Positions 7,165 through 46,697 of a stretch of DNA of 64,000 nt are shown in pieces. The notes below the pieces were generated by a model, which was given only the letters and a program-made list of their open reading frames with translations, ran no database searches and was not told the origin of the DNA. The stretch's first letter is position 1. Each line of letters opens with the position of its first letter. Source of the stretch: Dudresnaya verticillata (taxonomy: Eukaryota); contig OZ374558.1 of NCBI GenBank assembly GCA_977862235.1, positions 2,604,001 to 2,668,000 on the forward strand, in the 5' to 3' direction. The position numbers and the translations under genes were made by a program.

Positions 7165-7228
<64 letters not shown>

Positions 7229-10262: not shown

Positions 10263-10310
<48 letters not shown>

Positions 10311-10394
10311 AGAGAAAGCGGATCTCGTGTTTTGTCAACGGAGCTCAATTTGTTAAACGGGCAATAGGCGTTTATGCAGAGGAAAGACTACATT

Positions 10395-22207: not shown

Positions 22208-22636
22208 ATGGTGTTTACTGCGGATTACTGCGGAATGAGGACCAACCCGCCCAAGCCCTCGGCTTGTCAGGGCTCGCACCAGCACCCCACCCGTCACTGC
22301 CTCTGTGAGCTGCAGCGTGCCATCGCATACCCGAAAATGCTCGTCGAAACCCAATTCTTTCAGCCCGTGGTTACCGGCGAACGGCCCTGTCAAGACAAGA
22401 AGAAGCCCAGTCATTGGGAGGGTGGTCGCTTTGGCCACGGGAGCCTCTTTTGCGGTGCAATTGTCAAACTCCGAAGGTGCTTCATGTGCCGCAGAAGTGT
22501 GAGCCGCGGAGCCCAGCATCTTTGCAGGACATGTGCCCATGCTGAGTGCCCCCGGTGTCAAAAGCTCTGCTTTCTCGAAGACGTCGAGATCCGTGTATGG
22601 GAGAACGTGAAGATGCCGTATCCGGGTGAGTATTAA
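22208..22636 (+). CDS. Small zinc-finger ORF (FYVE-like spacing), start uncertain
   Basis: CFMC-X11-CRTC-X4-CPRC; a decayed duplicate exists at 18048-18328. Confidence 0.45.
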   Translation: MVFTADYCGMRTNPPKPSACQGSHQHPTRHCLCELQRAIAYPKMLVETQFFQPVVTGERPCQDKKKPSHWEGGRFGHGSLFCGAIVKLRRCFMCRRSVSRGAQHLCRTCAHAECPRCQKLCFLEDVEIRVWENVKMPYPGEY

Positions 22637-23432
22637 ATCGAGAACTAGGAGCTCGACAGTGTTGGATCCATGCGGCGGTGGGTTTATGCTAGTATCCGGA
22701 GCGGGGAGGGTGGGAAACACTTTCGAGGTACAGGGCGGCGTGTCAACAATCTACGGAACGAGGACGTGAATTTCTGCTGAGAAGCTCATCTTTCTCACTC
22801 GCTCAACTTTGCTAGTTCCGCAAAGTGTTGCAGCAGCCATTCGAAAAGCTGCTGGATACCCCCGTCCGTTCCGGCCGAAGCGCACGCATTGCTCGCGACG
22901 TTAGCAACAGCGAAGGGACGAACCTTTCTTCATCATCGGCATGGATACCTCCAGCGCTGCGGGACTCAGTCGATATGAGGACGTATCTCTCGCGCGGCGC
23001 ACGGCTCGGAATAATGCGACTTTTGCAAAATCGTCAGCCACTGCTGACAGTGCTTTGTGTAAGACGCGCACGCGCGAACGGAACGGATGCGGTTCCGCCG
23101 CAGTGGCAGCTGCGGCTGCTGCAGTAGCCGCACGGTCGACGCCGTTCAGCGGGGGCACTGCTCGCTCCGGCACACAGCGCGCACGCAGCTGCGTGGGAGC
23201 CGCGGCGGAGAGCGCGCGCTCTCCCGCTCCCCGCTTCCCGCTCTCTCGCGCTCTCGCTCTCTCGCTCTCTCGTGCTCTCGTGCTCTCGCGCTCTCGTTCT
23301 CGTCGCTCGCACAGCCGCGCGCGCAAGGAAGGGGGTATCTTACGCGCGTTGTCCAAGACCGTGCGTTTGCGTTTACGTGAAGATGCGTGTGGGCGCTCGC
23401 TGCGTGGCTGCCGGGGGGCACGGCGGGATATG

Positions 23433-25848: not shown

Positions 25849-27414
25849 ACGGCAGAACAACAAGTTGGAAAATTCTCAACGGTTGCAACTAGTGATAGCT
25901 GTGCACTAGATTGCTCCTCTTTTTCTCTTTCGTTCTGCCCCATTCTCAGAGTGTTCCTTTGCTCTCCTTCAATTTTTTCGTCACCGACCCAGATGTACCT
26001 TGGACACGACACAATGCCGCTGCAGTGCCACGTCTTGTAGAACAACCAAACTAAATAAAAATATTCTTCACACTCTTGCGCTCCCAACCGTCGCGAAAAA
26101 GGTTGGCATTCTGACTATTAGACGAGCGGGACAGTATTATCCAACTTGGAAGCCTGAAGAACTCGAAAGAGAGAGAAAGAGATCTAACCACGACAGCCCT
26201 CCAATCTTGTCCTTCCAGCAAGCACGTGTCGTCGTGTGTACGCCCTTGTTCGTGCCAACGTGGAAACTTTATCGGGGGCTGAAAACGAAATATGGCACGA
26301 AGCAAAACTGCTCACCACGAGCCTCGCCTCCTCATACAGAGTGAGTGGTGTATTCATCTAAAGTTTTAGGTGTGAGGAGAGTCCAACAGGTTTTAAGCAC
26401 ACCACACATGACCCCCCCCCCCCCCCCCCCCCCCCCCCAACACACACATGGAGGGAAGCAGTCAGGAGTGCTGATTTGGATTTGGCAGCGTGTGACACAA
26501 GCGTCAATGTTCATCCGCCCGGTCTCGACTTTTTTAGTATTTCCCGCAAATAAGGCAGGCAATGGCGGAACGGAAGCAAGTTTCGCGTTCCGCATATGAA
26601 TGTGATGAGGCTATTGTGGCTGCAAAAAATCTCGCTCTGGGTATATCAAGCGGTAACATGCTCATTGAAAGTTATTTGTAAACAGTTTTGGTGGTATACT
26701 TTTGCTCTTTCGGTTTCCAGAGCAGCTTGAGGAGCTGCGAAACATTCTGGTACCCTCATGAGTTTAGGAACCATCTCGCCTGGACAGGTGGCGAGGAAGA
26801 GAGTAGAGAGAGTGAGAGACCTTCATTGAATAATAAGAGAGAAGCCCCTTAAGCGCCGAGGCAATTGACGTTATCCCGAATGGGATAGAATTGAGCTTGT
26901 TCTCCACCTTACCGCAAACGTGCCTGAACAGCTGCGCAGACGAGCGGTGTGCATACTACCGATTGCATCTGGTCATGTAGCGTCGATGCGGTGCTGGCAC
27001 GACTTTACTGGCTGCTTCAACGTGGGGCAATCCCCAGACAGTTAATTTGCTCTGCTATCCGTAATTAATGGCCGGTCTGTCACCACAACCTTTATTAATT
27101 TCTTCACAGAAATTTCTTATATCACGGGACGCCTGTCCTGTAATAGTGAGCTTACAGTAGAAGGAGTAACTGCAATAAATGTGACCGAATCACTTGGCAG
27201 ATATTTTCGGCCGTTTTGCAGTTACTCTATTCCCGGCGTGAGTCACGGCGCGCTTACGGCCAAACGGGACTGGAACGGGAGTATTAGTACTGTACTGTAC
27301 GACCTTGTACAGGGTGCTCACCCTCTCCACAACCCCGTTCCAACGCCTCCCCAGCACCATGTCATGCCCGTGACCCGACAGAAGGACTGTGCGAAGCACT
27401 TGCACGTGCGGCGC

Positions 27415-27645
27415 ATGCAGACTACGCAGGCCGTGCTGGCAATGCTCAGTCGCCACCGCTACCGACGCCGCTACCGCAGAGAACTCTTCCGCGCGGCGCT
27501 TTCGTTGGCTGAGCAGGCGAAGGCCCTCAGCTTACGCAACCATCGCACAATTCGAATTGGGTCGATATCATTTGACCCCACGTTTGGGTGTCTATCGGCC
27601 CAGGAGTCCCTCGAGCAGTTCCGGTTCTGTAGGTCCCACATTATT
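27415..27645 (+). pseudogene. N-terminal fragment of a PIF/Harbinger-type transposase
   Basis: LSAQESLEQFRFCRSHI resembles the N-terminal 'ecl..FRF...I' segment of DDE_Tnp_4 proteins; truncated, no catalytic core seen. Confidence 0.45.
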
Positions 27646-28326
27646 GTGGAGCAATGGCCGTACGCGGCTGTAGGGCACCCCCGAGAGTTCGGGCTCGGGA
27701 GGGTAGCTGCACGATCACGCGTGAGTATCTCGTAAACGCAGTGGAAGATCTAGGAAGCAATCCGGCGGCGGACTGTAAACACCGTCGGGTTGTGTGTGGG
27801 CTTGGACGCCAAAAGTAGGTGGAAACACCAGCGACGGGGCGTAGACGCCAAAGGTGAAGGGAGGATGAAGGAATAAGGGAAGGACCGGAAGAAGTGTGCT
27901 GGAGAAGTATAAACGGGGTAAATTAAGGGAGCCGAGCATGGCGCGGGGAGTACCAGCAGGGAGGTGCGCGTAGGGAGCGTCGGGCAGGCGGATGGCACGG
28001 TTTGCGCTAGCCTTAGCCCGCGGTGACGCCGAGCAACGAGCTCGTGGGTCAGGCGAAGGGGAACTCAGATGCAGAGCCCATGACGCTTGGTCGTTCCCTC
28101 GACCCAAGTCGTCGATTTCGGAAGCAATGAGACAGGGCGTGTGACGGACACCTTTGGCGACATGCGCCCACGAACCGGAGTGAATTCCAAAGATTCCGGA
28201 AGGGGCCGTCCCCTGCGCGTTCTTCCACGCTTCTTGAGAACGTGTGGTATAGACGCCATCCGTGAAACGACTCCGTGGCCTACGTGAAAATAATCGAGAA
28301 ATACGAATTTCGAAATGACTCCGTGA

Positions 28327-28524
28327 ATGCGCGCGCCACGATGGCAAACGTATTACAGTGCGCATACTGTGCGCGCGCCACGATGGCATACGCATTACGG
28401 CACGCACGTGATACGAAATCGCTGACACCTCCGGACGAATCCGGAGCCGACTTTGTGATCGCGCGTGCCACGATGGCATTCGCATTACAGTGCGCACCCG
28501 ATACTAAATCGCTGACACCTTCGT
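28327..28524. repeat. Three degenerate direct repeats (CGCGCGCCACGATGGCA...ATTAC), subterminal-repeat-like
   Basis: Cores near 28330, 28372 and 28460; the last two share GATAC.AAATCGCTGACACCT. Confidence 0.8.
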
Positions 28525-28924
28525 GACTTTTCCGTTGTTTCCCGCGCGTAACGGCACCGGGGCCCACGAGACACATGCACCTTCGTATGCATAGCTGGCG
28601 CACTTCGCAACCGCCATCATACGTGAGGCGACCGTTCGTTGGCACCGAGGCCGTTACGAACCATTCGAGTACGAACCGTCTCCCGCGTTGACGCGCATTC
28701 GTGCTCACGTAGTACTACTTAGTAGCCAGTCGTCTGGCACAACCTCCGAGGGTTTCCGGCAAGCGACTAGCGCCCGGACCTCGGAGTCTTCGGTAAACGC
28801 CTGTTTCTTCGAGTTCGGTGTCTTCGTCTTCGTGACCGCGGATACGGTCGAGCCTCGCTTTTGTGGTGAAGTGAGCTGTGGCGCGCATGCGGACCACCGA
28901 CGGCGAGCCAACCGTAACGGGTGA

Positions 28925-29535
28925 TGTGGCAATACGCCACGCTGATGATCTGGCAACGTGTAACCGTGTCGGATGTTGTGCGCATTGCTGTACGCCAGTA
29001 CGCATTGCTGTACAGCAGTGAAGCGCACCAACCATACCGGAGTATTTGTAGTGTTTATTCTCTATTTTTGTGAGTATCTGTACAGTATGTAGAGTAGTGC
29101 GCCAGCCAATGAGAATGCTGCGCATGTCCGTGTCGGAGATTGGGACCAGCAGGGCCGATTCCACCATGGGTCCAGACCACTAGGGTCTGGCCCCCACGGA
29201 CCGGACCGCTCGGTGCCACCCTGACTTGTATATCAGGACGGCACCGCAGCGGCTCCTAAGGTAAACGGATAAGCAACCTTAGCCCAATCCTTTACGGTTT
29301 TCCCCGCGCCGAGCCCGTTGCGGTCTACCACCACCACCGTTACGGAGTCCGTCCCGGCACTTGTACCACCCCCTTGTCTGTTGCTTCCCAATATCCGTCT
29401 CGGTTAGCCGCTAGCTGTTCTCCCGTTACGGTGCGAACTGCTCTACCACCCCGTGAAGGTAGTGTTGCTCTCGTCCGTTAAGGAAAGTCAGGCCAGCTGT
29501 CCGTCTCGGAGTTCGTGGGTTTTCACTACACCACA
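28925..29535 (+). repeat. Putative 5' LTR of element A
   Basis: TGTGG...CCACA inverted termini directly followed by a PBS-like TGG; no second copy to confirm the left edge. Confidence 0.6.
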
Positions 29536-29540
29536 TCTTT

Positions 29541-29558
29541 TGGTCTCCCGACCTAGAA
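29541..29558 (+). promoter_or_regulatory. Primer-binding site, possibly tRNA-Tyr
   Basis: TGGTCTCCCGACCTAGAA is complementary to ...TCGGGAG-A-CCA; implied C1:G72 and A73 are tRNA-Tyr identity elements. Confidence 0.55.
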
Positions 29559-29683
29559 CACCGTCACGGTTGGAAGAAACAGCCGTCGAAATCCGCTACG
29601 GTAGGAATTCGGCTGTAACGACAACCCGTTACGGAATATTGGATAGACAAGCAAGAACAACCGTTGTGTTCCGTTAAGGCATC

Positions 29684-32230
29684 ATGCAGAACGAAGAACA
29701 CGCAGACCCTCCCGTTACCGAACCTAAAGCGGGTGACACTACCCCCGCTGCGCGCAGTCCGCGCAGTGAAGCAGGTGAAATCCGTTCCGGAGTGGAGACC
29801 CCAGAAGACATCCTTAAGGGTGCTGCTGGTAAAGCTCCCCGTTCCCTTGTCGGATCAGACGCCTCGAAGAAGGCAGCTCCGCAACCCAAGCCGGAATCCC
29901 ATCGGGTCCACTGGGTCCTGTCGGAGGTCCTTCCTAGGGTGTTAGAGCATCTCCGATTGGAAGTACAACCTGGAATGGTAAAAGAGGTGGAGATATCCCT
30001 CTCGGAAACTGTTCCGTCTTTGGTTAATTCCTATCTGGAGCAGCACCTTCCTCGGATAGTGCAAGCTTTGATCCTACAGGAAAAGGTTTAGGGGTTTTAG
30101 CTGGAGCAGCACCTTCCTCGGATAGTGCAAGCTTTGATCCTACAGGAAAAGGTGGCCGCCGAGCTCGAGAGCCAGATTGCTCCCGGCATGGCAAGGCCTC
30201 CCGCTACGGAAGCTTTCACTGAGCAACCACCGTTACGGAATGAATTCCCGGTCGAAGGAAGAACGCAGCAGCCGCAACAACCCCCCGTTATGGGATTGCC
30301 GCCGGGCACAGTACCCTCTGGGCCACTGCCACCCGCTCCCGTAACGGATTCTCAACATCAACACGCCCCTACGGGACCAGCACACACTCAGCCACCGTTA
30401 CGGTATTCTCCTGGACACGTAGATGTGCCTACGCCAGGGCGCTATCAGCAAGAGCGCGATACCGTTCCGGTTCGATCAGGTGGAGGTAGCGACCATCTCA
30501 GCGATGCGTCCAGCTCACCCTATCCGAGTCGGAGGACCGGTCGAGGTCGGCATAAACGAGATGCCCGACACTCCCGCTCTGACCCTCCCCGTCGGTCGCA
30601 CATGGGCGACCACACCCAGCGACGACGCCACCAATCCGGTATGGAATCCAATGAGAGCAGCTCAGAGGATAGCCAACACCGCCGCCGCAAGAGGAGAAAC
30701 AGAAGATCGCGGAAACGCGAAAAAAGGCATGACTCCTGTACCTCTACGGATTCGGACTCAGAGAGTTCTTCCGTAACGGATAGAGAGAATAGGCACCGGG
30801 CCAGAAAACACGGTGCCAAATCCGGAAAGGTGAAGGTAATCCGGCCGCTACATGACAAGTTTGTCAAGGCGCTGGACTACCGCACCTACCGATTGGATAA
30901 GAGGAGTAAGACATACGGCTCTAAGTTCTCACAAAACATGAGCCGTATACGGAAGAAACTCGACGTCCAGATGTCGTCCCATACATTCGATGGGACGGAC
31001 CCTATTACCGTCTTAGGATTTCTCGCCAAGTTCCGTGACGGTTGTAACATCAACGGCATCGCCGAGGGGGTTGCCGTCTGGTGCTTCCAGTTTTTCCTTA
31101 AAGGACAGGCCGAAGCCCTTCTACAGGCTAGGCTTGCGGGAGGTACCATGGCGGTTGACGTGGAGCAGGCCGAGATGCTCCGCACATATTCCGAGGTGGT
31201 GAACTTTTTATTGAGAACCTACGCTACGGATGAAGTGATTGCTGAAGCCTATAAGGATGTCAGAAACTTCAGGCAAACATCCGCCCTGACGGAAGAGCAG
31301 TTCTCGAACCAGCTCTGGGCCAAGGCTCTCCGTTGCGGTACAGTATTTTCCGATCGGGCATTGAAGTCACTGTTCGTTGAAGGACTCCTACCGGGTACTC
31401 GTCAACAGATGAGAAATTATCTAGCGACACATTCCCAGTTGGATTATCAGGCCATCACTCGCTATGCGACTGGCCTGGGTCAGTCCCATCGGGCAGCTCG
31501 ACGCCAAACCGTTCCGGCTCACGTCTTTGATGGGCGCACTAAAGCGCGCCCGTCTAAGGTGTTGTCGCTGGATTCCGTATCGGATGTACACTATGAGTCG
31601 CAAGGGAATTTTTCCGCTACGGATAATCAAGTGCTAGCCGTCGAGGGAGGCCACGGTGCCGCTACGGGAACGAGCACGGGGGTTACCTTTTCTACCCCGT
31701 ACTCCTCGCCCCCGCAAAGCGTCCACCCTACTCCGCCCAGGCTTCCACGCGCGCAAGGTCCCCCCTATGGTGGACCTCGCCCGGCTCCTGGCCCCCAACA
31801 GCAGCCGAGTCACCGTTACGGAAATAATACCCACGATGGGCGAGGACAGCAGCAACCAGCACCTCCGCTACGGGATGAGTCGGATCCTCGGGTCCGACGC
31901 CTTTACGGAAGTGGTAACTGTCACATCTGCCTTTCGCCAGAGCACGTTGTTTGTCCCTGGATACATGACTCCGATCGGGTTAGGCTTATGGAAGAGCGCG
32001 AGCGCAACTTCCAGAAGCACTATCCTGTAGGCCGCAGGTTCGTAGTAGGAACCAGTTCGAATCCGCAAGGGAATCGGGGCAGGCCGCATACGCCCCCTCC
32101 GCAACGGAATGCCCCGATACTATCGGTGGAGGACTATGACGGAGTGGAACTCGCAGAATTGCGCGAGCCCATGGAGGCGGATCCGACTGGTGCAACCTTG
32201 AATTCGGAAAACTCAAGGGGGGATGCGTAA
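29684..32230 (+). CDS. gag: Gag of element A, interrupted by a 66-bp in-frame insertion containing a stop
   Basis: ORFs 29684-30091 and 30125-32230 share a frame; capsid-like FDGTDPITVLGFLAKF; knuckle CHICLSPEHVVC. Confidence 0.85.
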
Positions 32231-32260
32231 GGGCGCCGCCATCCCCGCCTCACGGCGTTC
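32206..32260 (+). promoter_or_regulatory. -1 ribosomal frameshift signal: G GAA AAC plus H-type pseudoknot
   Basis: 6-nt spacer; S1 GGGGATG/CATCCCC; S2 GGGCGCCG/CGGCGTTC. The -1 frame is open into the protease. Confidence 0.75.
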
Positions 32261-35200
32261 CACCTCTCGCGAGTGTGGACCCGCCAGGGGATCGGCGAGA
32301 TACCGTTACGGAACTCCCATTGGCTTATCAGACCAATGATACTATCTTCTTTATGCAACATCAAAATTACAAGATGCAAATTACCGTGGGACGGACAGAT
32401 AGCGTGATGATTCCTTTAATCTCCGTCTTGGACTCTGGCGCTGGGCCCAATCTCATTAGTGCCAGGCGCCTTCCGCGCCAATGGCTCCCACTCATACGCC
32501 CAGCAGCCAGTCCTCCATTACGGGATGCGTCTAATCGCGCTATACGCCCTCTTGGTCAGATCCAACTTTTCGTCCGTATCGGAGAGCTCCGTGCTCGCGT
32601 CCATTTTCTAGTGGTCGCGAACTTGGCGGCTCCCTGTATTTTGGGAACTACCTTCATCGACCGCTACGTGAAGGCAATACTCCCTCCGTTACGGAAAGTT
32701 GTTTTTCATCATTACCCACCGGTATCCCTTGTTGGTCAAGCCAAAATTCCGAAGACGGGAACCACTGCAACCCTACAGCCCTCACCTCCTCCTACCGCTA
32801 CGGTTTCTCAGAAAATTCGTTTAGCAAAATCTACCCCTATTCCCCCTATGCCTCAAACCACCGTAACGGTTAATACCCCACGGGTGGGTTATGCTTTCTA
32901 CAAAATCACCCTAAGCCGGCTATTAAGCACCTTACTTTAATGGCTAATGGTATTATGGATGTTGTACCTAACAAACCGTTTCGGATCTGGGTCTCTAATT
33001 TTTCTAACAAGCCGGTACGGTTGCCCAAATCTACTTTCGTGGGCCTCGCTACTGCTGCACCCTCTGCTATTTTTACCGTTGACGGTATACCTCCATTTAA
33101 GGAGGGGGAGGAATTATTCAATCATTTAATTCTAACCCTACCTCCGAAAAGGCCAGCAGCATCTCCCCTCACGACAAGGAACTAAGCAAACCCGTAACGG
33201 AAAATACGAATACTACCGACTGGAAGGATCAAGTCCAGATCGGCACAGAAGAAGCATCGCTCCGCAAACGGATTTTAACCCTACTCGAGGAATATAAGTC
33301 GATGTGGAGTGGCGATCTTGGCAACATTACAGCTGCCAAGCACCGCATCGAGTTAACTCCCGGAGCTAAGCCAGTGTATCAAGCCCCATACCGTGCCGGA
33401 CATAAGCAGCGAGATCTCGAAAAGACAGAAATCGATCGCATGCTTTCCGCTAAGGTAATTGAACCAGCCTCATCGGAGTGGGCCAGCCCCGTGGTTTTCG
33501 TTCCAAAAAAGGACGGCACCATGCGGTTCTGTGTTGACTATAGAAGGCTCAATTCCGTAACGGTTAGGGACTCATATCCCTTGCCCAGGATGGATGAGTG
33601 CATAGATTCCCTTGGGGAAGCTACTGTATTTACCACCCCGGATTGCAATAGCGGATATTGGCAAGTCGAGATTCCGGAAGAGGAAAGGGAAAAAACTACC
33701 TTCACTAGCCATTTTGGCTTATACCGTTTTGGGAGAATGCCATTCGGATTGAAAAATGCACCGGCAACCTTCCAACGGGCAGTGGATATAATCCTTTCTA
33801 CATTTAAATGGCAATTTGCCCTCGTCTATCTAGACGATGTAATTGTCTACTCAAAAACCGTTACGGAACATTTCCACCACCTGAAGGAAGTCCTTACGCT
33901 TTTACGATCCGCTGGGGTAACGTTGAAATTGTCAAAGTGTGACTTCTTCAACGCGTCTGTACAATACCTGGGGCATGTTATCCGTCCCGGAAAATTAGAA
34001 GTGGATAATAGAAATATCCAATCCGTCAAGGAAGCGAAGCCGCCGACAAACCAAACGGAATTGCGATCCTTCTTGGGAATGTGCAACGTGTATCGTCGCT
34101 TTGTACCCAACTTCGCTCGGATTTCAGCTCCGCTAAATAAGAAAATCGGCAAGGGCTCACCCTTTGAGTTTGGAATATTATCCGATACGGAATATGAAGC
34201 CTTCGAGGAACTGAAGAGACGCCTTATCTCTCCACCTATATTGGCTCTACCCCGTCATGGATATAAATATACGTTGGATACTGACGCATGTGACCACCAA
34301 GTCGGCTGTGTCCTTCTGCAGGAACAACCGAATGGCGATCACCTCCCTATTGGATATTGGAGCCGAAGCCTCACCGATGCGGAGAAAAATTATACGACAA
34401 CCGAAAAGGAATGCTTAGCCGTGGTCTGGAGCATGTTAACACTCCGACCCTACCTTTACGGCGACAAGTTTATTCTCCGAACGGATCACGATGCCCTGCG
34501 GTGGATCCTGAACCTCGCAGACTCATCTGGCCGCCTAGCCAGGTGGAGGCTCCGCCTATCGGAATTTGAATTTGAGGTGCAATACCGTCCTGGAATTAAG
34601 CATCAACTCGCCGGATGTCGCGACTCCGAACGGATGGCGGTGACGATAGACCTTTGGATGAAGAGATACCCTGCTTCGTCGCCGAAAATACCGTCGACGG
34701 ATTATATGAGCATGGAGTCTATTTAACCGATTGGGCCACATCACGAGAAACCGCTACGGAAAATAACGTAATATGCGCCGTGGAGCCCACCAGTGGGAGT
34801 GCATCCGCCTCCCCCGACAAGCCCGACGCAATACCATCACGGTTTACTGTAATCCAAGAATCCGACGTTAAGGATGAGACAATTACCAGGGAGGAGTTCC
34901 TCGAAGCGCAAGCCAGAGACCCTTTCTGTCGTCTCAAAGCCGATACGGTAGGCTCCCCTGGATCACAGTTTGACTATGACCGTAACGGATTCTTGGTACG
35001 CAAGTCCCAATTGGATGGCGCTCTACAGAAGGTGGTGCCAAGCGAACTCCGTGGACGGGTATTGTATTTTCCCACTATACCCTGATGTCGGGTCACCCAG
35101 GTGGAATTAAGATGTATTACACACTCCGACAGGATTATTATTGGCCTCATATGGCCAACGATGTATTTGAATCCGTTCGGACATGTCGCTCCTGTGTGAA

Positions 35201-36512
35201 GACAAAGGGAACCCGCTTTCGGAATCAAAGGTTTATGAAACTTTTCCAAGCTAGCGGACCTTTGGAGTTTGTCGCTATCGACATTCTCGGGCCACTTCCG
35301 GAGACAAAACGGGGTTATTTCTACGTCTTGGTAATTACCGATCGGTTCTCTAAGCTAACGCGCTGTATCCCGTTACGGACAAAAACAGCCGTTGTGGTGG
35401 CTAACGCCTTTCTGGACTTTTGAGTATACGCCTACGGCGCACCCCAATTTGTCCTAACCGATAACGGACCGCAGTTTACTGCTAAGTTCTTCGACGCGGT
35501 GTGTTTCTTACTCGGATTCAGGCACCTGCTCACCGCTGCCTACCATCCGCGGACAAATGGGCAAGCTGAGCGATTTAATAAGACAATCTCCCAACGTTTG
35601 CGCCATTACGTCGAGGATCATCACTCCGATTGGGATTTGTACCTGCAACCGTTGACATATGCGTACAACATGCAGGTACACCGTATTACGGAAACAACGC
35701 CATTTGATTTGGTGCTGACACGCCACCCATCGGACATTGTTGTACGAGGGGCTCCTGTCGAACATCAGGAAACCGTTACGGAAGGGCGTATGACCCAAGT
35801 GCTACAGAAGCGGAGCACCATGCGCCGTTTACGGTACGCGCTCCAGACAGCGCGCACGAAGCAGACAGTGGCTCAGCAAAAATCCAAGGCACTGTTTGAC
35901 CGTAAGGTACGCTTTAGGCCCATAATCCGAAGCGGAGATCAAGTCTATGTCGACCGGCCGCCCCATAACTTGCGGCCGGCCGAACGCCGTGAGCGGGACC
36001 GATTGGAAGGCAAACCGGACGATGTGGGCGAAGTGGCTCAGGAAATGAAGAAACTCCCTCCGAGAGCCACGGGGCCTTATGAAGTGGAATCCGCAACGGA
36101 ACATGTCGTTACAATCCGCAAGGAAGGGGTATTAATCCCCGTAAGTATCGATCGCATCACGAAAGTTCCGATCGGAGTTGCGGTTCAGCCGGCACCCTTA
36201 ACAGTTCCGCCTGTCACGCCATCAACCGTCTACGGAGAAGTAGTGCCACATCCAGAAGGTACTACAGTAGTACCTCCTTCTGAAGGTACTACTCCCTCCT
36301 CGACGGAACCACTGCAAGCCGATACGGAATATGTGATCGACAAGATTGTCGGTCACCGCGACGAACCTACTGGGATGACATACAAAGTCCGCTGGTATGG
36401 TTACCCTCCGGACCAAGACACTTTTGAGCCCGCGGAGGAGTTACCGCATAATTTCATCTACCGATATTGGAAGCAAAAGAAAAAGAAATCCGCTAAGGGT
36501 AAGCCACGGTGA
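32206..36512 (+). pseudogene. pol: Pol of element A (protease, RT, RNase H, integrase, chromodomain), frameshifted
   Basis: VLDSGAGPNLI; DCNSGYWQ and YLDD; TDACD; GHPG..CRSC, IDILGP, TDNGPQF, QAERFN; YVIDKIVGHR...YKVRWYGY..DTFEP. Confidence 0.96.
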
Positions 36513-36641
36513 CGTGCTAATCCAACACGTCACTCACCGTAACGGACAGTTGGAATGCTGGGGTGTGAGAACATACAACGTTTATCCAAGCTAAGATCGA
36601 GGCATAATGGAAACCGTTAAGGAGATCGTCGAACTGTAACT

Positions 36642-37340
36642 CTAAGAGTTACGTCGACGCCGTTTCGGAGCAGGGGCAACTGTATCTTCCTCGTTGCTCC
36701 CCTGACCCGTTCGTAAGCCGGGTTCCCCACTCGGATCCGATTGGAATACGCGCTGCGTAGTGTCTCCCAAGACGCGAACCGCACTGTCCATGCGCCGACG
36801 CTGACGACGGACCACCGCGCGGAGATGAATTACCTGTTCCATCAGCCCCTCCGTTAAGGTTAACACTTCCTGAACGGATCCTGGCAATGGGAAGCGCTGC
36901 GTACGGCAAATGCCCCGTAGCACCTGTAACCCACTTTCCGTAGCGGCTAAATGAGCCGGAACCGTAAGGGGGGGATCCTCATCTTCTTGCAACTTCTGAG
37001 GCTCCAACAACAGTCCTCGCGAAATTCGCCGGAGTGATGTTCGTGATGTCTGGGAATGCCTGTGCCGAAATCGCAGGTGTCGCATACGAGTACCGAAATC
37101 CGGATTCCTTCCAATCCTCCATGTAGAAGATCGCAAGCTGCGTGATGCTGGGATTAGATTGTACTGTGCCTCCTTCCCGGGGAACCCAGTTCTATTTAAG
37201 ACTCAGTTTGATTCTAACCTCTACACGTTGCACAAGTCCCGAGTTGAGTTAGGACTCCGCCAGAAAGCCTGGGGCATAATATCAAGACCCGTCGTGGCTA
37301 GCATTCAAGCCTTTGTACCCGCACTTGACAGTCAGTCCTT
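36642..37340 (-). pseudogene. Antisense accessory ORF of element A, function unknown
   Basis: 164-codon open stretch (36642-37136) ending in NLS-like PAPKRRRR; upstream decayed segment YYAPGF...NW. Confidence 0.55.
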
Positions 37341-37479: not shown

Positions 37480-39560
37480 TATAACGGTAAAGTGGCAGCG
37501 TTCATTGGGAATTATAGTGACAAAAGCTCTCGCGTCCTCTCCGTATTCGACAACAGGGCAGGCCTAACCTCATTCGAGCTGGTGCTATTTCATCAGAAGA
37601 GCAAAAGAATATCGCTTCTGTCCGGTTATTCGTGAATCTAACTTCCGCCTCACGACATAAAATAACTACCTTAGGGACCCTTTCCCTGTACGTCCGAATC
37701 GGAAACAGACGAAACCGACGCATGCGATTATCAAGTGGGATGCGCCCTTATGCAGATGGATGAGAACAGTGATAGACACCCCACTGGCTTCTGGAGCCAA
37801 TCTGTAACACAACCTGAGCGTAACTATTCGGCAGGCGAGCAGGAGTGCTTCGCGATCGTATGGGCGGTGCAGATACTGGGACTCTATTTATAACGATCTC
37901 GCTTCGATCTTTATACGGACCATCAAGCTCTGCGCTGGATCATGGGTATGTCTGACGCGTCGGGACGCTTAGCAAAAAATAGAATCCGCCTTTTGGAGTA
38001 TGAATTCACGGTACAGTACTGGACAGGCCGGAAAAATCAGATTGTCGACGCGTTGTCTCCCTTTCCGACGTGGGGATACACTCACACGGAGCCCGACCTC
38101 GAGATACCATGCTTCATAGTTGAAAATGGAAGCCCTCATGGCCGAGGAGCGTCGCTGGAAACATTCAGGCCAACTGGCGTTACTACTCAGGATGAACCAC
38201 TCGAGACGTGGGATATGGAGTCCAATGATGGCTACAGTGGCCTGCACGACGAGTTCCTAATCGACAACACAGCGGAGAAACAAGCTGACGAGGGCATTGT
38301 CTCGCAATTCACGATTAAAGAATTCCTTCGAGAACAGAAGTGAGATCCCTTCTGTCAGCATATACAGAAACGTATTGATACGGGAAATCCCGGATGCTAG
38401 TTGGAAGACAACCGGGGGCTCATAGCCTGCAAATCTTATGTGCATGCGGCCATACAGGTCCTAATACCCGCGACCCTTCGCGAAAGGGTGCTCCACTTGC
38501 CACACTACCCGTCTTTAGATGTCCATCTTGGGGGAATCCGTATGTTTCACAGCCTGCGTCGGCAAGTGTACTGGCTGGATATGGCCTTAGACGTGTATTC
38601 GACCTTTCTAAACTTCCGGCAGTGCGCGAAGGAACGAGTCAAGCTCAGAAAGCATACTTCGTTCCTCAAGCCCTTTCCAGCCACCGCTCCACTGGCGTTC
38701 GTGGCCATCGACATATTGGGTCCACTGACCAAGTCAAGCAAAAGGAATGATTAGGTACTCGTGATCACGGATCGCTTCTTGAATCTGACACGGAATGTTC
38801 CAATTAAGACAATCACATTCTATTCCATTGCGAAGGCATTTTGAAACCACTGGGTCTATGTATACGCTAAACCCCCACCCTATTTATTATCGCACAATGG
38901 TCCCAGTTTGCATCTAAGTTCTTCATGACGGTTTGCAGAATTTTGCGAGTGCGCAATTTGTTCACATCTACTTACCACTCGCCAAGAAACGGCCAGACCG
39001 AGCGTTTTAACCGCATCATTCTGACGGTATTACGACACTTTATCGATGAGAATCAGCGCGACTGGGATGCAATTTCTAACGCATTCACGTTCGCGTAAAA
39101 TATCACGGTGAATAAGACTACGGGGCTGTCCCCTTTTGATTTGGTCATCTCCAATCCACCGACCTCCCTTCCCATGGAGCGATCGGAGACGTTGGATTTT
39201 GTCGACGTACCCGCGAATAATATGAAGAAACGCTTGATTTAGCGGTTTGAACGATTGATGGATACGGTGCTTCCCCGTTTGCGACTCGCGCAGAAACGCT
39301 ACCAAGCTGCCTTCAGTCGAATTGTTCGCCCTGCTAACAGGAATATTCGCGTTGGAATCTGGGACCTTCTAGAGCTCGGGACTCGGGTAAAGGACCCTGC
39401 CGGTGTGTATCGCGATGGTAAGATGTATCCTGAGGCTCTGGACCGATATAAGGTTGTTAATCATGGGACACAGGCGGTCGTCCTCGAAATCAAGGGTGAA
39501 CGGGAATCAGTCTCCCTAGGCCGACTAACATTGACAACGTCGCCGGAACAACAGCTGAAC
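37480..39560 (+). mobile_element. Internally deleted, degenerate Gypsy remnant B (protease joined to RNase H-integrase; RT absent)
   Basis: VLSVFDNRAG followed within about 170 bp by ETDACDYQVGC; then TDHQALRW, FVAIDILGPL, NGQTERFN; many stops. Confidence 0.85.
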
Positions 39561-40007: not shown

Positions 40008-40522
40008 TGAGAATAAGTGAGCTGCCGGTATGAGGAGATGTAACACTTGGCGCTGCGCCGCACGTCTCCGGGTCTCATTTAAGGAGGTACTGACGTGTAA
40101 TTACACCACACGCATTGTTAGTGCGCCAGCGCGTACGAGTACAGACCAATCCAATATACTGTGGTCGAACAGCAAGCGGAAATTAATCTCGGCTGGGAGA
40201 GGACGCCACCTTGTATATGAGCACGACTCTCGTATTTTCACATTAACAGCTGTTTTCATGCACTCCTAGATTACCTCACCTCCGCAACGAAGAGGGATTA
40301 CCATCTTCTCGCCTATTGCGGGCGACTCGCTCCCACGAAATCCAGTGGCAAACCCACTGGATTTCGTGGGAAGGGTAGGGCACTTTTGGGTAGGGCACGA
40401 CTTGGTCGACGCCATGGCGTATGGTTCCCTTTCCAACTTCCGAGTTGGAGCTCCTTCCCCCAAAGGCACAACTACGGCATATGCTTTGTTAAGTCGTGCA
40501 TGACTTCTCATGGTATCAGAGC
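40008..40522 (+). mobile_element. LTR plus tRNA-iMet PBS of a further element (host of element C)
   Basis: TGAGAA...TTCTCA (40008-40510) followed by TGGTATCAGAGC; left edge could instead be 40031. Confidence 0.65.
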
Positions 40523-40980
40523 TATAAACACTTCCTCCTTGACTTGTTGGGTGCTGTCTTGTTTGTGCTCAATGCGAAGACCTCTGCCCTTTTCTTCCTC
40601 GAGAGAGAAAAGGGCGGAGCTTTTATATTTTATTATGGAGGCGATTGCTCCAAAGCTCCGAGCCTACTCTATGCGTTTGATAAAGAACAGCACTACTGCT
40701 GATTCTAAACGGTATGGATAAAGTAGCTGTTCTATTCGTAAACGGTATCTTCTACAGTAGCCCAAACCGCCATGCCCTCAGACCAACTACCCCCGGGGAC
40801 ATGGTAGTTCAAAACATCTATCTCCGGGGACAGGCTTGAAGATGTTACGTCTTCAACGGAAGAAGTTGTTCCTGCAACGGAACATCTTCTTGGATTAGAG
40901 TAGAGCTGACAATTCTAAATTACATAACAAAAGCTTCAAGTTAGCAAGCCTGTAGTGCCACTTAGCAACGGTTCTCTACA
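40523..40980 (-). repeat. 3' LTR of element C
   Basis: Direct repeat of 45946-46403. Confidence 0.96.
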
Positions 40981-41017
40981 TGGCCCTATACTTGCTAGGG
41001 CGGAGTCCTAGTGTGTA

Positions 41018-44000
41018 TTACTTCTCCTTAATGCCAAGTGCTTTGATTGCCTTTTTTGCAAGACGCTTCTTACGTGTTGTTCGTAGGAAGCGTTCTATGC
41101 GTTGCGGAATGTCTTGATACATTTGCTGCAGCGACTGCCACGTCCAGTCAGTAGCATCAGGCTGCCCTAACTACTGCACGTGAAAGAAAATTCCGTCGGA
41201 CGCCTCGCCGATATCCAGCAATTTCTCGACCATCTCAAACTTAGTCTCGATATGTTCGGCTTGCTTCATCAGATTTTTAGAAACAGGAGCGCCATCCGAG
41301 CTGGCTTTGTAGAGTAGTAGCCTAGCGACGTGAACAATTTCAGTCTTGTTATCCATGAGCCCGGTTACTTCATAAACCATGTCACCAATATTCCTTGAAA
41401 TACGGCGCGGACCCACCCATCGAAACATCATTTTGTGTCCCTTATTCTGCGCTCTGCGCACTAGAACAAAATCTCCAATTGTGAAGCTAGGCGTAACCAG
41501 GTTTGTCTTCTGGTTGTGATACGCTATCTGCCTCTGCCTATTATTGGAGACATTATTAGCCACGTCGCGGTGCATGTCTTCTAAAACATTCTGCAACTTA
41601 TTGATGTTAATGCGTTGATGCACGCGGACTTGACTTATGGGGACTGGTTCTGTTTCTTCTTGGTGTCGCACCAAAAAGTTGATGCGATTGGGTAGTATTC
41701 CGGTCATGACTTCGAGGGGTGTTCTGTACGTCCCATCGATGCGCTTACCTAGGCGCCGGTGTGGAGCCTCATTTAGCGCCATCATAACGGTATCAATAAC
41801 CAGTGGCCAATCTTGTGGCCCAAGCTTGAGTTCTGAGAGTAACGCCGTGCAAGCGGCCTTAATATGTCACATACAAACTTCAATCTACCATTAACCCAAG
41901 GAGAATACGCAACTGTGAACCGGTGCTCAACTTTGTAGATCTTAGCCAAAGTTTCCATAACTTGGTTTTTAAAATGCGACCCCTGGTCCGATACCCAGTA
42001 TTTCATTGCCGTAAATACTCGTATCCACCTTGAAAGCTCTTTCGGCACTGTTTCTGCATCCGCGGCCATACTTGGACATATCCGTAAGTAAGACGAAAGG
42101 TCGTCTCGGATGATGAGGCAGTATGTCAAACCATCTGCGCCAATCCCCATAAATATGAAATCGAAGTGAACAACTTCGTTAGGCTTCATGCCGTGAGGGG
42201 TAATAGATATTGAACGTGGAATGCGGTTTCCACTTTTCCCAATGTTACAGTGCAAACAATTTGATACAAACTCATTCACATCGGCCTCCATACTGTTCCA
42301 TTGGCACAACTCCTTAAGTGTACTCCAGGTCGATTCCACACCTCGATGTCCACCTGCCCCACAATGCGATATTACTAACAACTTCATTTGCAAGTCCACA
42401 TTATTATCAGGTATCCAAATGCGTGTGTTATCTCGTAGTAAACCATCCTTTCCTTTCTTCAATCGTGTAGGAACATTATCTGCGGACTGTTGTGCCTTCA
42501 GTAACATTTCGGGCGACGGCAATTCAAACGTGTTCTCATATGGAGACTGAACAAGGTCCTGGGCCTCTATAGCACGAGTGACACGTCTAGCAAGGTTATG
42601 TTTGCCTCGATAGCCAGCAAACCATCGTGTCATCATGTCGGCAGTATTGTTGCGGCTGCCCTCGACGTGTTCGATTGTATACATAAACCTAGAAAGGTAC
42701 AATGCCCAGAGCTGAACCTTGTTGATTTATATCTTCCAAAGCTTGGTCGTAATGCAACAGGGTTGTATACAAAAAGAAGATTCCTGTGGTCCGTGAACAG
42801 ATGAATATTTGCTTCGCAGGAGAACATGTAATCCATCTTCTCGAAAACTTGATACACAGCATATGCCTCGCGCTCAAAGGTTTTCCAATGCTGCTGCGTT
42901 TCATTAAATGCGGACCCAAGGAAAGCCAAAGGTTGATGCATCTGCTCTTCTATTGGCTTCTCTAAGCCTGATGGGTGGCACTGTGTAACTACCACCGCCC
43001 AGTGTTCATCAGATGCGTCGGTGTGGACGCAAAGAGTCTTTTCTTGATCCCTATGCGCGCGTCTCACCGCATTTTGAAGCTGTTCTTGAAGGTCGTTAAA
43101 GGCTTCAGCGTGCTTTTGGCCCCAAGACAATTTGTAAAGTCGTATGCCCTGTATGGACCGTGAAGTACGCTTTCCCGATTTTGTATGAGCTTCTTCAAGA
43201 ACTGCGCGTAGTGGTGCCACACGAGCAGTAAAGTCGAGAATATATTGCGACATCCATTGTAAACAGTTCAGAAAATGTGACAACTCGGCGCCGTTCTCTG
43301 GAGCGTACGCATTCTTGAGTCCACTCAAACGTCTTGGGTCACAAGTGACACCACCCTTGTCAACCACATACCCACACCATTCTAAGGAAGTGCTGAAAAG
43401 TACAGACTTCTTTGCAGAAATTTTCAGGTTCTTTTCCCTACAGATGGTGAAGAACCTTTCCAGATAGGATATAAGGTCTCTTTCATCCTTGGCATGCACT
43501 GCAAAATCGTCTACCCAAGCCTTGACTGCACCACGAATAGATTGAAAACATGGCTCCAGTCGGGACTTGAAGTTCTGTACTGCGTTCATGCCTCCTTTTA
43601 GTGTTCTCGTAGGCTGGAAAACACCAGAAGGTTTTAGAAAACTGTGGTAATGCTGGCTCTCGGAATGTAGAGGCATCTGCCAGTAACCTGCACAGAAATC
43701 TATACTCGCAAAACAAAAGCTATCTGCGAAGTCCAACAGCTCCGATTGTAAATGTGGCACTGGCCAGGCCATTGGTTGAGTACACTGATTGACCATGCGA
43801 AGGTCGAAAGTTAGCCTGTACGTTTTAGTACCAGGCTTTGGCACTAGTAGCGGTGGGGATTCCCACTCAGCATTTGGGTTCGGGATGGCCATGCCGTATT
43901 CTAAAAGCTTTCCGACAAATCGCTTCATGTAGTCACGCTGTTCAGCAGAATAGCGCCGCGCCTTCGTAATGTAGGCTACAGAAACTGGCTTGATATTGAT

Positions 44001-44879
44001 CCGCATTGGTTCTACTTTTGCTGGGGGACCCGGAACAAGGCGCACACGGAAAACATCCGTATATGCTGCCAGCAGCTTTTCCAATTTCAACTTTCCAGTT
44101 GCGCTCAAACCATTGTCAGAAGCAGTGTCCAACATCTTGTTAAATGCAGTTTTCAACTCTTCGGGTGAGTCCTCTCCAAGCTCAGTGCGTTGTTCGGAAA
44201 GACTATTGGGCACCTCCCCCGTCACTCCCTGGTGGGAATGAAAACGACCAGACGACAAAATGCGGGCGATAGATCCCTCCTGGTACTCATCCTCCATCAG
44301 CAAACCAGCATCAACCTCGCCTTGATATCTGTCGCATGCGGCTTCAAGAGTCTTCCTCGTATTTAATCCAAGGGCTTCTTGGATAGGACGACCGAGTAGT
44401 GGTTCGTCAACTGTGTCTACAGCCACGAGCCATTTTAAGTTTCGAATCAGTAACGCTTTCCCATGGCGGATTCGTAGTTCAATATTTAGTGGGACTTCCC
44501 TGTCACATGCGACATGCATTTTGGCAGCAGAAAGACCGAACGTACGGGCACGGTCGAGCGTTTTCAGCTTCATGGGTGCACGTCGTTGCAACAACTCTTT
44601 GAATATATTTTGTGGCATTAAATTGATGTCAGAACCCTCGTCTGCACACAATCTAGTCGAAACCAATCCAGCGAACACTACACCCATGAGTGTAGAATTG
44701 TTATCCTCAGACTGCTTATGTGTGTCAGACTGAGTATCCGCACAACGTTTAGCCTTCTTGCTTTCCCTTTCGTCTATGAAGGACTGTATTAGTTTGTTTG
44801 CTTCATCTGTGCTCGTCTTAGGGCAATGCAGAACACTACGTGGGTGCTTGATTCCCTTCCGCTTGCAATCTTCATTCAA
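41018..44879 (-). pseudogene. pol: Pol of element C (PR, RT, RH, IN, chromodomain), frameshifted
   Basis: LCADEGSDINLM; IDFCAGYWQ; WVDD; HTDAS; GGHRG..CLHC; SDQGSHFKN; FEMVEKLLD...FFHVQ*LGQPDATDWTW. Confidence 0.93.
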
Positions 44880-45695
44880 GCATAGAAGTTCGCGACGATT
44901 CTGTGGTCCTTTTCCAGACTTAGAAGCTCCAGCTACTTACGTCCATCCTTCTGCGGCTTGCCATTTTTTGAGCCGGACGAGCTTGCCTTCTTTGTTCCCT
45001 TATCATCCTTTTCAACACGCGTCCTGGTAGGTCTGATCTTGCCCTGAATGACAGCCTCTTTGCAAAGTACAGATACATAATCATTGACCTTTTTCTTCAG
45101 TCCAGCTTGAAATTCAAGGTGCTCTGCCATAGCTGCTTTCAGATCAAGGGGTAGACATTTCTTGTATTAGTTTCACTGTCTTCTCAGGATTGCGCTCCCT
45201 GAAAGAAGAATAGCCAACTCCATTCAGTCTTTGAAAAACATCATGGACATATTCCAGTATTCGAGCCTCTGGATCTGAAATGTTCATAGGCATTCTCATG
45301 CCTTTCAGAGCGTCCTGAATTACGGTAGGGTTGAATTCCTTGGCATTGGCTTTGCAAACTATGCTCCTCACCCATTCTTCGATTTGCTCGGACGTGAGAT
45401 CTTCAAACGCGACAGAATTAGCAGTAGAATCCATTCTACCGAGGCTATGCATCGTCATTAGCAGACTCCTATCCACGGAAACCTTGAATGAAGCAACGCT
45501 CAGTCCTGGGGCTTCTTTGCTCTTCTCCTCGACTTCATCTACATATCTTTCCCGCTCCCGTAAGAACGCGGAGACTTTCAGTGGGTCGACACTTCTTAGT
45601 ACAGGATGCTGTACGGGTGCGAACAGCGCACTGGATGTGCCAAAATCCGAGCGCCCTGGCCCGCTCTCAATTCCAGAACGAGTGACCGGTGGCAT
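44880..45695 (-). pseudogene. gag: Gag of element C, frameshifted
   Basis: ORF pieces 45144-45695 and 44933-45130 between the 5' LTR and pol; knuckle-like CLNEDCKRKGIKH..C at the junction. Confidence 0.75.
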
Positions 45696-45945
45696 GATGC
45701 TATTTCAAAAATAACCAAGACGACTGAGAGGTAGTACAACTGCTTCGTAGGTACACCAGTTCCAGTAGATCACAAAACAATCCACTTATAGAAGTACTTG
45801 ACAAGTAGCACTCTTGAACGATAGTAGCACCTGACGGGTACAACGCTTGACAGGTAGAAACACTTGGTAGACAACCTGACAGGCACAAAACTTGACAACA
45901 GCAATAGTAAAGGAAATTGCGTCTCCTGCAGGGAATAGACATTTC

Positions 45946-46403
45946 TATAAACACTTCCACCTTGACTTGTTGGGTGCTGTCTTGTTTGTGCTCAATGCGA
46001 AGACCTCTGCCCTTTTCTTTCTCGAGAGAGAAAAGGGCGGAGCTTTTATATTCTATTACGGAGGCGCTTGCTCCAAAGCTCCTAGCCTACTCTATGCGTT
46101 TGATAAAGAACAGCACTACTGCTGATTCTAAACGGTATGGATAAAGTAGCTGTTCTATTCGTAAACGGTATCTTCTACAGTAGCCCAAACCGCCATGCCC
46201 TCAGACCAACTACCCCCGGGGACGTGGTAGTTCAAAACATCTATCTCCGGGGACAGGCTGGAAGATGTTACGTCTTCAACGGAAGAAGTTGTTCCTGCAA
46301 CGGAACATCTTCTTGGATTAGAGTAGAGCTGACAATTCTAAATTACATAACAAAAGCTTCAAGCTAGTAAGCCTGTAGTGCCACTTGGCAACGGTTATCT
46401 ACA
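45946..46403 (-). repeat. 5' LTR of element C
   Basis: Direct repeat of 40523-40980. Confidence 0.96.
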
Positions 46404-46697
46404 GAGCCGAACTCGCGGCCACCTTTACTACCAACTAGGCATGGGCCTCACTGTACCATAATCATTGCTAATTGACTTAGATGCCTTTACTCGGTCCAAA
46501 CGCGCACACGCGCACACTAATCACTAACACTATCAGGCCTCACGTTGGCGATTGCCATCAACTTGGCAAACGCCCGTCTTCTACAATCGTGACTCCTATT
46601 TTCGTAACTCATGAACAGAAATTAACTTCTCCGCGTCAAAACCGCATTAGATAGTTTTGGACTAAGTGCCCTTAAGGAGTAATTGGAGGGTGAAGAC

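Follow-up and report, generated by a model that had tools for sequence, protein, structure and literature searches.

A decayed Ty3/gypsy LTR retrotransposon in the 64-kb window (the whole stretch of DNA analyzed here) carries 19 exact copies of the quasi-palindrome CCGTWACGG (11 CCGTTACGG and 8 CCGTAACGG), lying between positions 28912 and 36545. We put at about 0.5 the probability that this word is a family tag under selection, to which a putative reader binds all along the element in a VANC-like manner. The observations that support a tag include the enrichment of the word, its confinement to the element within the window, its use of silent and variable positions and the independent variation of its two halves. 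Silent sites and some RT and integrase residues spent on an evenly spaced palindromic tag would imply a strong cis demand over the full length of the element, whereas the textbook retrotransposon life cycle, with its LTR, primer-binding site (PBS), polypurine tract (PPT) and one packaging region, comprises no such demand.

A decayed element and its repeated word

The element (about 28862..36976, forward strand, like all the parts listed below) belongs to the red-algal clade of chromodomain Ty3/gypsy elements (Metaviridae): it shares with them the LTR, PBS, gag, PR-RT-RH-INT order, chromodomain and PPT, its Pfam matches follow the gypsy order (RVT_1, RT_RNaseH, Integrase_H2C2, rve, Chromo), it clusters with a Chondrus crispus protein and the relatives of that protein, and its RT is 75-77% identical to that of Chondrus-type elements, among which is CDF38306.1. 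Unlike them, this copy is broken and without a 3' LTR. The start of the 5' LTR (28862..29535; 12 motif-type sites) was deduced from the terminal inverted repeat TGTGG...CCACA and is uncertain because the LTR is unpaired. There follow (i) the PBS TGGTCTCCCGACCTAG (29541..29556), whose 16 bases are identical in relatives L086, L087, L090 and L091; (ii) gag (29684..32230), delimited from ORFs and 28 Gag homologues and broken near 30090, next to a 56-bp duplication (repeat D16); (iii) pol (32231..36512), delimited from ORFs, Pfam and PDB chromodomains, fragmented by frameshifts and stops and containing nine exact copies of the word, with, in that order, a protease region (51% to the Pol of a relative), RT (33500-33982), RNase H (34184-34567), integrase (35073-35549) and a chromodomain (36330-36473; PF00385, E 4.6e-11, and PDB chromodomains); (iv) the PPT (36966..36975), after which the sequence is unrelated. 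Gag matched no Pfam family and had low-complexity PDB matches only, and the Rfam and tRNA-gene searches returned no matches. Neither a second LTR nor the combination of two LTRs and a target-site duplication was found in the 64-kb window, which we read as the probable mark of a truncated copy. Only about 455 bp separate the pol stop from the PPT, too little to accommodate the antisense accessory ORF that relatives have; the sequence-only reading had invoked the product of an antisense ORF, but the ORF list and homology comparisons revealed none inside the element.

The 19 exact copies that this reading had reported are all present, at 28912, 29337, 29423, 29626, 30230, 30339, 30395, 30771, 31813, 32303, 32686, 32861, 33192, 33555, 33858, 34980, 35370, 35773 and 36537; it had overlooked CCGTGACGG at 31033. 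They are distributed over the LTR (3), leader (1), gag (5), protease region (3), protease-RT spacer (1), RT (2), RNase H-integrase linker (1), integrase (2) and 3' UTR (1), so that 14 of the 19 are inside gag-pol. The assertion that all pol domains are included holds only if variants are counted, RNase H and the chromodomain edge having one-mismatch copies only. It was right that the exact word is absent elsewhere in the window (0 in the other 55.5 kb, including two decayed Ty3/gypsy remnants), and the one-mismatch variants, announced as more than a dozen, amount to 38 in 28.5-37 kb versus 7 in the other 55.5 kb. In the two remnants the density of CC-N5-GG is 2-5 per kb, versus 8-26 in the element. 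CCGTCACGG is also present outside the element, at 58408.

Shuffles of 28862-36976 (300 for each k) gave mean counts of 0.12, 0.14 and 0.78 when 2-mers, 3-mers and 4-mers were preserved, with a maximum of 3. Synonymous permutation of the 6786 coding bases (2000 permutations) gave a mean of 0.45 and a maximum of 4, compared to 13 copies observed. Thus, the enrichment outlives both dinucleotide- and codon-preserving controls, and protein constraint does not explain the copies, as had been claimed. More specifically, the exact word fills 13 of the 16 places that the proteins permit, and the remaining three are each one base off. Motif-compatible peptides are more frequent in Gag (10 versus 2.0; 0-4 in the 28 Gag relatives); in the Pol of the window itself, the word reaches only rank 7 of 512, so its protein footprint is a weak test in relatives. 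That the word is known from a single copy would fit chance, composition, codon bias, tandem duplication or an assembly artefact, but every shuffle falls short by more than one order of magnitude, the flanks of the copies are unrelated to each other, no repeat family includes any copy, and the copies are in frame within domains homologous to relatives, so we regard an origin of this kind, errors in the source sequence apart, as practically negligible.

Anatomy, spacing and a possible reader of the site

The wider site family (28912..36970) comprises 55 CCG-N3-CGG, the core of the word (4-6 expected), 142 CC-N5-GG and 55 sites with at most one mismatch from CCGTWACGG. In the CCG-Nx-CGG series, strong enrichment is seen at a spacer of 3 only (55 versus 5.6), with shoulders at 2 and 4; CC-N5-GG likewise has shoulders at CC-N4-GG and CC-N6-GG. 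Both orientations are common (11:8), the central base is A or T in 19 sites and C or G in 2, and covariation is absent at all 11 distances around the 55 CCG-N3-CGG sites (outer flank 19 paired, 19.8 by permutation). Since the flanks do not covary and the center is almost always A/T, the anatomy of the word suggests a site for a DNA-binding dimer. A second word, CCRATYGG, occurs 11 times in 29953..36744 (starts 29953, 30889, 31350, 31971, 34727, 35007, 35338, 35626, 35999, 36168 and 36737) as CCGATTGG (6), CCGATCGG (4) and CCAATTGG (1), compared to shuffle means of 0.74-0.98 and a maximum of 6. Once CCG-N3-CGG is broken, the element displays no general short hairpins.

From RT to the chromodomain, sites lie about 300 bp apart. 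A series of 11 sites, each with no more than one mismatch, crosses RT, RNase H and integrase (33555..36327; starts 33555, 33858, 34182, 34453, 34751, 34940, 34980, 35370, 35773, 36091 and 36319); its gap CV is 0.35, against 0.87 for random placement (p 0.0003 in one of 9 tests), and its largest gap is 403 bp. When the 19 exact copies are taken by themselves, the evenness of their spacing does not reach significance (p 0.08), and no helical or nucleosome periodicity exists among all site pairs. Site density per kb is 17.8 in the LTR, 27 in the leader, 15.1 in the 3' UTR, 5.0 in RT-RNase H and 4.9 in the integrase core, and 0.5-0.8 in the flanks.

According to the reading that we favor, a homodimeric protein would bind two outward-facing CCG half-sites three bases apart on double-stranded DNA, and the word would have come to occupy nearly every place allowed by the element's proteins. 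The sites, which are not in tandem repeats and for that reason probably arose one by one, would result from point substitution under selection; with one decayed copy in the analysis, selection is deduced from saturation rather than from a comparison of copies. Each bound site may act locally, over some 150-200 bp on either side, in which case sites would be needed along the full length of the element. Locally, the most probable effect would be to protect the integrated copy from host silencing, as VANC proteins protect VANDAL transposons. Candidate readers are the fast-evolving antisense accessory protein of relatives (which would act in trans, this copy being without the ORF), a product of gag or pol, or a host factor that has been co-opted, and the word provides a defined 9-bp probe for fishing out the putative reader. 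The recognition code proposed by the sequence-only reading is partly supported, namely as regards element specificity, independence from protein, codon and dinucleotide constraint, dimer-site anatomy and the difference between sister families; the packaging signal proposed alongside is poorly supported in the form of a hairpin.

The LTR and leader being densest in sites, the reader could instead be a host transcription or chromatin factor, co-opted to give expression in a particular cell state with nothing element-encoded involved. The word contains what we take to be a MYB-type core (CCGTTA/TAACGG), and the second word presumably a CCAAT-like one; the absence of the accessory ORF from this copy points the same way. 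In addition, the same consensus is printed, in dimer-site form, as a predicted transcription-factor motif in Shewanella in the available portion of PMC2532739. However, enhancers do not need an even tiling of pol, no exact copy occurs in the 55.5 kb outside the element, where host genes and other elements lie, the commonest variant, CCGCTACGG, breaks the MYB-type core, and signatures differ between related families. We therefore deem a purely host-driven role improbable.

Folding, strand bias and a single-stranded role

A self-hairpin probability of at least 0.75 was predicted for just 3 of the 19 exact copies. In 60-nt windows, the two strands show the same folding excess relative to synonymous controls (-1.57 and -1.60 kcal/mol); in 90-nt windows, it is larger on the sense strand in 3 of 3 pieces tested. 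This excess remains when the motif codons are fixed, which indicates that something beyond the word shapes the sequence. Moreover, CCGATTGG is found 6 times on the sense strand and its complement 0 times, and A follows 14 of the 19 exact copies, with T preceding only 3. Such strand biases are unexpected for a symmetric DNA site and leave some room for a role at the RNA level.

One such role would be that the word acts single-stranded, its complementary forms pairing between or within genomic RNAs or cDNA strands as a multivalent self-recognition for dimerization, co-packaging or compaction, with the hairpins of relatives as a structural version of the same demand. The two forms of the word are indeed fully complementary to each other (predicted duplex -13.9 kcal/mol), CCGAUCGG pairs with itself at -13.2, and CCGAUUGG does so at -9.0 compared to -1.3 for its complement, the sense strand carrying the pairing-competent form only. 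Consistent with this idea, the covarying stems of L006 bear loops in complementary forms, as would be expected of kissing hairpins, and sense folding excess surpasses antisense by 1.4-2.7 kcal/mol in L006, L062, L063, L083 and L084. On the other hand, one-mismatch variants that give a G-U pair on the sense strand number 4 versus 11 for A-C, the pooled hairpins of relatives have no G-U excess (104 versus 88; A-C 154 versus 118), their GNRA loops are no richer than the complements (4.2x and 4.4x), the high LTR density is equally compatible with DNA regulation, and the predicted accessibility of the copies is ordinary (median probability of being unpaired 0.0008, mean rank 0.44 when set against 9-mers with the same G+C). 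According to the portion of PMC13079385 available, homotypic clustering of RNA can be driven by palindromes in silico, but these have to be accessible, and prediction on long RNA is unreliable. On this evidence, a single-stranded role seems to us rather unlikely.

The packaging signals of ssRNA viruses are dispersed, and retroviral dimerization uses palindromes. The word resembles the former as a set of many short degenerate sites along a genome, and the latter, like the palindrome clustering described in the accessible text of PMC13079385, by its self-complementarity. Yet these systems rely on strand-specific stem-loops or on single accessible palindromes, and the word is neither, being common in both orientations, without stem covariation and not predicted to be accessible. 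The covarying stem on one strand expected of a stem-loop packaging signal was not found around the copies, and a hairpin packaging signal appears poorly supported for the word.

Related elements and known systems

We compared the element with 148 related loci (1.24 Mb; nearest 62% RT identity). The exact word, present 19 times in the 8.1 kb of the element, occurs 6 times in these loci and is enriched in none of the 148. Instead, many of them carry family-specific, strand-symmetric short inverted repeats, with perfect Watson-Crick pairing, a family-specific loop length and pyrimidine-first closing pairs; a search for other motifs in sister families, as the sequence-only reading had advised, thus uncovers different symmetric signatures. 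L006 has the sister word CGASTCG (CGA-S-TCG 17, CGA-W-TCG 0), the restricted center of which parallels the A/T preference of CCGTWACGG. The hairpins of most signature-bearing relatives covary and differ in sequence from one to the next, a pattern for which a dimer that reads sequence does not account; these signatures are a measurable trait in their own right. In two families, the stems diverge at about half the rate of other sites.

A family-specific mutational or repair bias could write symmetric words without selection, either by fold-back copying by the element's reverse transcriptase or by methylation-directed repair, which has been proposed for HIP1. The perfect, strand-symmetric inverted repeats of relatives, with their family-specific loops, fit fold-back copying, and the slower stem divergence could also come from repair. 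Fold-back copying, however, is expected to give covarying arms of any sequence and not one fixed, non-covarying word; loop inversions were seen in 0 of 712 and 2 of 455 differing loops in relatives, the arms are not enriched in runs of adjacent differences and no template-switch signatures were found there. Furthermore, a neutral process does not predict even spacing, and CpG is not depleted in the window. We consider a bias of this kind quite improbable.

Extending the selected-tag reading beyond this element, it is possible, though on balance doubtful, that every red-algal Ty3/gypsy family is covered over its length, LTR to LTR, by a two-fold symmetric mark peculiar to it. Tentatively, the mark would be a fixed word here, CGASTCG hairpins in L006 and sequence-free hairpins of fixed loop length elsewhere. 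Perhaps, as part of the same reading, a protein of each family's own, possibly the antisense accessory protein, reads the mark, discriminates self from other elements and shields the whole copy from silencing. If true, this would give LTR retrotransposons a system for recognizing self and opposing silencing, written in RT and integrase codons at roughly nucleosome-pair spacing, and the word opens a way into transposon control in red algae.

HIP1 in cyanobacteria and the DNA uptake sequences of Pasteurellaceae and Neisseria are genome-wide bacterial words. Like them, CCGTWACGG is short and over-represented within coding regions in every frame, where it biases the choice of codons and residues; unlike them, it is confined, within the window, to one eukaryotic mobile element, and the HIP1 parallel drawn by the sequence-only reading fails on this point. 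Sequence-specific counter-silencing is established for one plant DNA transposon group, with motifs in non-coding repeats. In the accessible text of PMC5735166, VANC21 binds to a family-specific motif of 9 bp, the density of which is important, and the Arabidopsis VANDAL motifs, 9 bp long, are concentrated in one family and scarce in its sister families, whose motifs differ. The same text describes VANDAL as a Mutator-like DNA transposon encoding its binding protein, with non-palindromic motifs that lie mostly in non-coding sequence, share one orientation and have multiplied through tandem repeats, whereas here an LTR retrotransposon copy without the accessory ORF present in many relatives bears a quasi-palindromic word in gag and pol codons, outside tandem repeats and evenly spaced. 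A literature search found no dispersed motif code described for chromodomain Ty3/gypsy elements.

The antisense ORF of relatives, between pol and the 3' LTR, looks nuclear, has a shared core and occurs in families with and without signatures; the tag gives such ORFs a candidate job. It matched no Pfam family above cut-off and had no Foldseek match; its model has a mean pLDDT of 53, the best VIA Z is 5.2, on poorly predicted helices, and Atlas leads are under 0.9 (low recognition). Similar antisense ORFs are described for the plant gypsy elements Grande, RIRE2 and Retand, without a reported link to a DNA motif in the available text of PMC7264820; these lineages are not chromoviruses, according to the Retand abstract. 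DNA-level copies of the family were sought in a metagenome scan (6 of 64 parts; best 80 of 604) and in viral and prokaryote-genome scans, in which no locus exceeded 62% RT identity. In three contaminated bins, the motif pattern was no more frequent than its reversed version used as a control. Viral contigs scanned for paired motifs yielded 120 loci, the top count being 10, in one locally repeated stretch.

A fixed word saturates one element's permitted places and tiles its pol gene

The Ty3/gypsy LTR retrotransposon at 28862–36976 of the window carries RT, RNase H, integrase and chromodomain, and is broken by stops and frameshifts. Its 5′ LTR (~28862 to 29535) is followed by a primer-binding site that is letter-for-letter identical in four relatives; a polypurine tract lies at 36966, with no second LTR after it. 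Named homologues come from Chondrus crispus and Agarophyton chilense, and the RT groups with a Chondrus-type clade in trees (support 0.98; FastTree only, matches shorter than 300 or 380 residues excluded), which points to a red-algal host.

A scan of the window recovered, each in its place, the 19 exact copies of CCGTWACGG (the word) announced by the sequence-only reading, and none in the remaining 55.5 kb, as it had also held; its "more than a dozen" one-mismatch variants proved to be 38 in 28.5–37 kb versus 7 elsewhere in the window. The enrichment persists under dinucleotide-preserving shuffling: with 2-, 3- or 4-mers kept (300 shuffles of 28862–36976 per order), exact copies average 0.12, 0.14 and 0.78, with a maximum of 3. 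Protein constraint does not account for it either, in agreement with the sequence-only reading: synonymous codon permutation over 6786 coding bases gives a mean of 0.45 copies (maximum 4 in 2000) versus the 13 observed. The protein permits the word at 16 places, 13 of which are occupied, the other three being one base off.

The enrichment is real and larger than the sequence-only reading saw, and an artefact is hardly credible. CCG-N3-CGG occurs 55 times versus 5.6 expected, an outlier among all spaced three-base palindromes (spacers 0–15), whose runners-up, CGT-N1-ACG and TCC-N5-GGA, are parts of the same site. A second word, CCRATYGG, is present in 11 copies (shuffle means below 1). With all of these sites masked, CC-N4/5/6-GG still stands at about twice expectation and GG-Nx-CC is not raised. 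The element's residue choice is probably bent by the word as well, because Gag is enriched in motif-compatible peptides (10 versus 2.0; 0–4 in 28 Gag relatives) and because Pol exceeds every homologue in motif-permitting places (6.3 per 1000 residues; maxima 5.8 among 120 and 5.5 among 97 homologues), although a separate footprint test in Pol is weak.

Site density is highest in the leader, LTR and 3′ UTR and lowest in the RT–RNase H region and integrase core. Within this constrained stretch, the 11 sites with at most one mismatch follow each other evenly, every ~300 bp with a largest gap of 403 (CV 0.35 versus 0.87, p 0.0003, one of nine tests; p 0.08 for exact copies alone).

Reading of the site

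We put at about 0.5 the probability that these are selected sites read by a homodimer on double-stranded DNA and acting locally. On this reading, selection would have built the sites one at a time; if each acts locally, the entire element must be covered, and the likeliest benefit to the element would be avoiding silencing. The word is common in both orientations, its centre base in otherwise perfect sites is A/T in 19 cases and C/G in 2, and its half-sites vary independently, no distance at the 55 CCG-N3-CGG sites pairing more than under permutation.

The word might instead serve self-pairing of RNA or cDNA, for dimerisation or packaging, which we consider possible but rather unlikely. In silico, homotypic RNA clustering can be driven by palindromes that are accessible (PMC13079385). 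In folded RNA the accessibility of the copies here does not exceed that of other 9-mers, and a self-hairpin is probable in just 3 of the 19. Folding of the coding sequence is more stable than that of synonymous controls, including those with motif codons held fixed; this excess is equal on both strands in 60-nt windows and, in windows of 90 nt, somewhat higher on the sense strand. Moreover, CCGATTGG occurs on the sense strand only (6 versus 0), and A follows 14 of the 19 exact copies, T preceding 3. This strand bias, flank asymmetry and extra stability disfavour a purely symmetric DNA site.

Signatures of related families

Among 148 related loci of at least 2.5 kb (1.24 Mb; 161 fetched by RT homology), the exact word occurs 6 times. 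As the nearest locus has 62% RT identity, this shows that other families lack the word and does not speak to conservation inside its own, represented by one decayed copy. A family-specific mutational bias is the least probable of the biological alternatives. Two decayed Ty3/gypsy elements nearby in the window, at 37680–39530 (plus strand) and 40522–46244 (minus strand, LTR pair 98% identical), hold no copy.

In keeping with the suggestion to look for different motifs in sister families, many related loci bear another signature, namely perfect 4–5-bp inverted repeats whose sequence varies and whose loop length is characteristic of the subclade. Related red-algal gypsy loci filled with such hairpins over the whole element are L005, L010, L012, L015, L048, L066, L075, L083, L084, L086, L091, L087 and L150; loops are mostly 4 nt, but 3 in L150, 5 in L091 and, centred on CG, 6 in L087. 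The inverted-repeat z reaches at least 6 in 39 of 90 loci, which are not independent, and is at most 3 in 32. The excess persists under synonymous permutation in 16 loci picked for signal, one of which yielded no ORF (pooled 876 versus 310), against 175 versus 201 in eight negative loci. Loops are strand-symmetric, and neither a G-U excess in these repeats nor loop inversions or arm-clustered changes in the stems were found. In two families, divergence in stems is roughly half that at other sites (0.051 versus 0.115; 0.056 versus 0.097); the figures are 0.300 versus 0.322 for a more distant set and 0.111 versus 0.089 for a negative family. One related locus (L006:1–10184) bridges the fixed-word and hairpin kinds of signature: CGA-S-TCG occurs 17 times and CGA-W-TCG never, atop covarying stems, with flanks pairing in 15 and 14 of 17 cases versus 6.9 and 5.0. 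No other locus among the 33 tested has a fixed word that matches the window's in strength. Note that L083–L093 and L150 are eukaryotic gypsy contigs in prokaryote bins labelled Algimonas, Planctomycetota and Robiginitomaculum, most likely algal contamination.

In many relatives a long antisense ORF lies between pol/chromodomain and the 3′ LTR (minus strand; L083:7213–10233, L086:10134–12692, L005:11077–12786, L075:7494–8975 and L063:10221–11738). It has basic tails and a divergent core shared by 43 ORF pieces, from families with and without hairpins. Comparisons gave no known family or fold, and PMC7264820 describes the function of antisense ORFs in plant gypsy elements as unknown. The window's element lacks this ORF. 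That the word is the site of a co-opted host factor seems unlikely, if slightly less so than a mutational bias.

Known systems and surroundings of the element

HIP1, uptake sequences, viral packaging signals and MYB or CCAAT cores are further items of comparison. The system that the word most resembles in its working is VANC/VANDAL of Arabidopsis, in which VANC21 binds a 9-bp motif that is dense in VANDAL21, rare in sister families, and found in non-coding tandem repeats in a single orientation (PMC5735166). Three tested features speak against membership: this copy encodes no reader, the word lies in coding sequence, and it has no tandem-repeat origin. The same word also appears among predicted Shewanella motifs, where it is matched to CueR (PMC2532739). 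A literature search, with thin coverage of subscription papers and possibly of red-algal genome papers and supplements, found nothing relevant on a code of motifs or hairpins dispersed along LTR retrotransposons, whether red-algal or other. The word is a real, strong and unexplained feature of the element.

One-mismatch copies at 28546 and 28651 lie upstream of the inferred LTR start. Inverted repeats with 4- and 6-nt loops are raised at 27000–28860 and 46400–49500, the latter including a weak match to the accessory-ORF profile (47788–47949, E 0.0015); both may be tails of the same host's hairpin-type elements. Inverted repeats of ~180 bp, 85% alike (18103–18283 and 22499–22676), flank a gene whose product is a Cys-rich protein of 650 residues, and the whole is possibly a DNA transposon. 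Finally, 1–10400 is a tandem array of almost identical ~3.1-kb units, every one containing a gene whose protein looks secreted and combines an acidic stretch with ~62-residue repeats rich in Cys, Lys and Arg.
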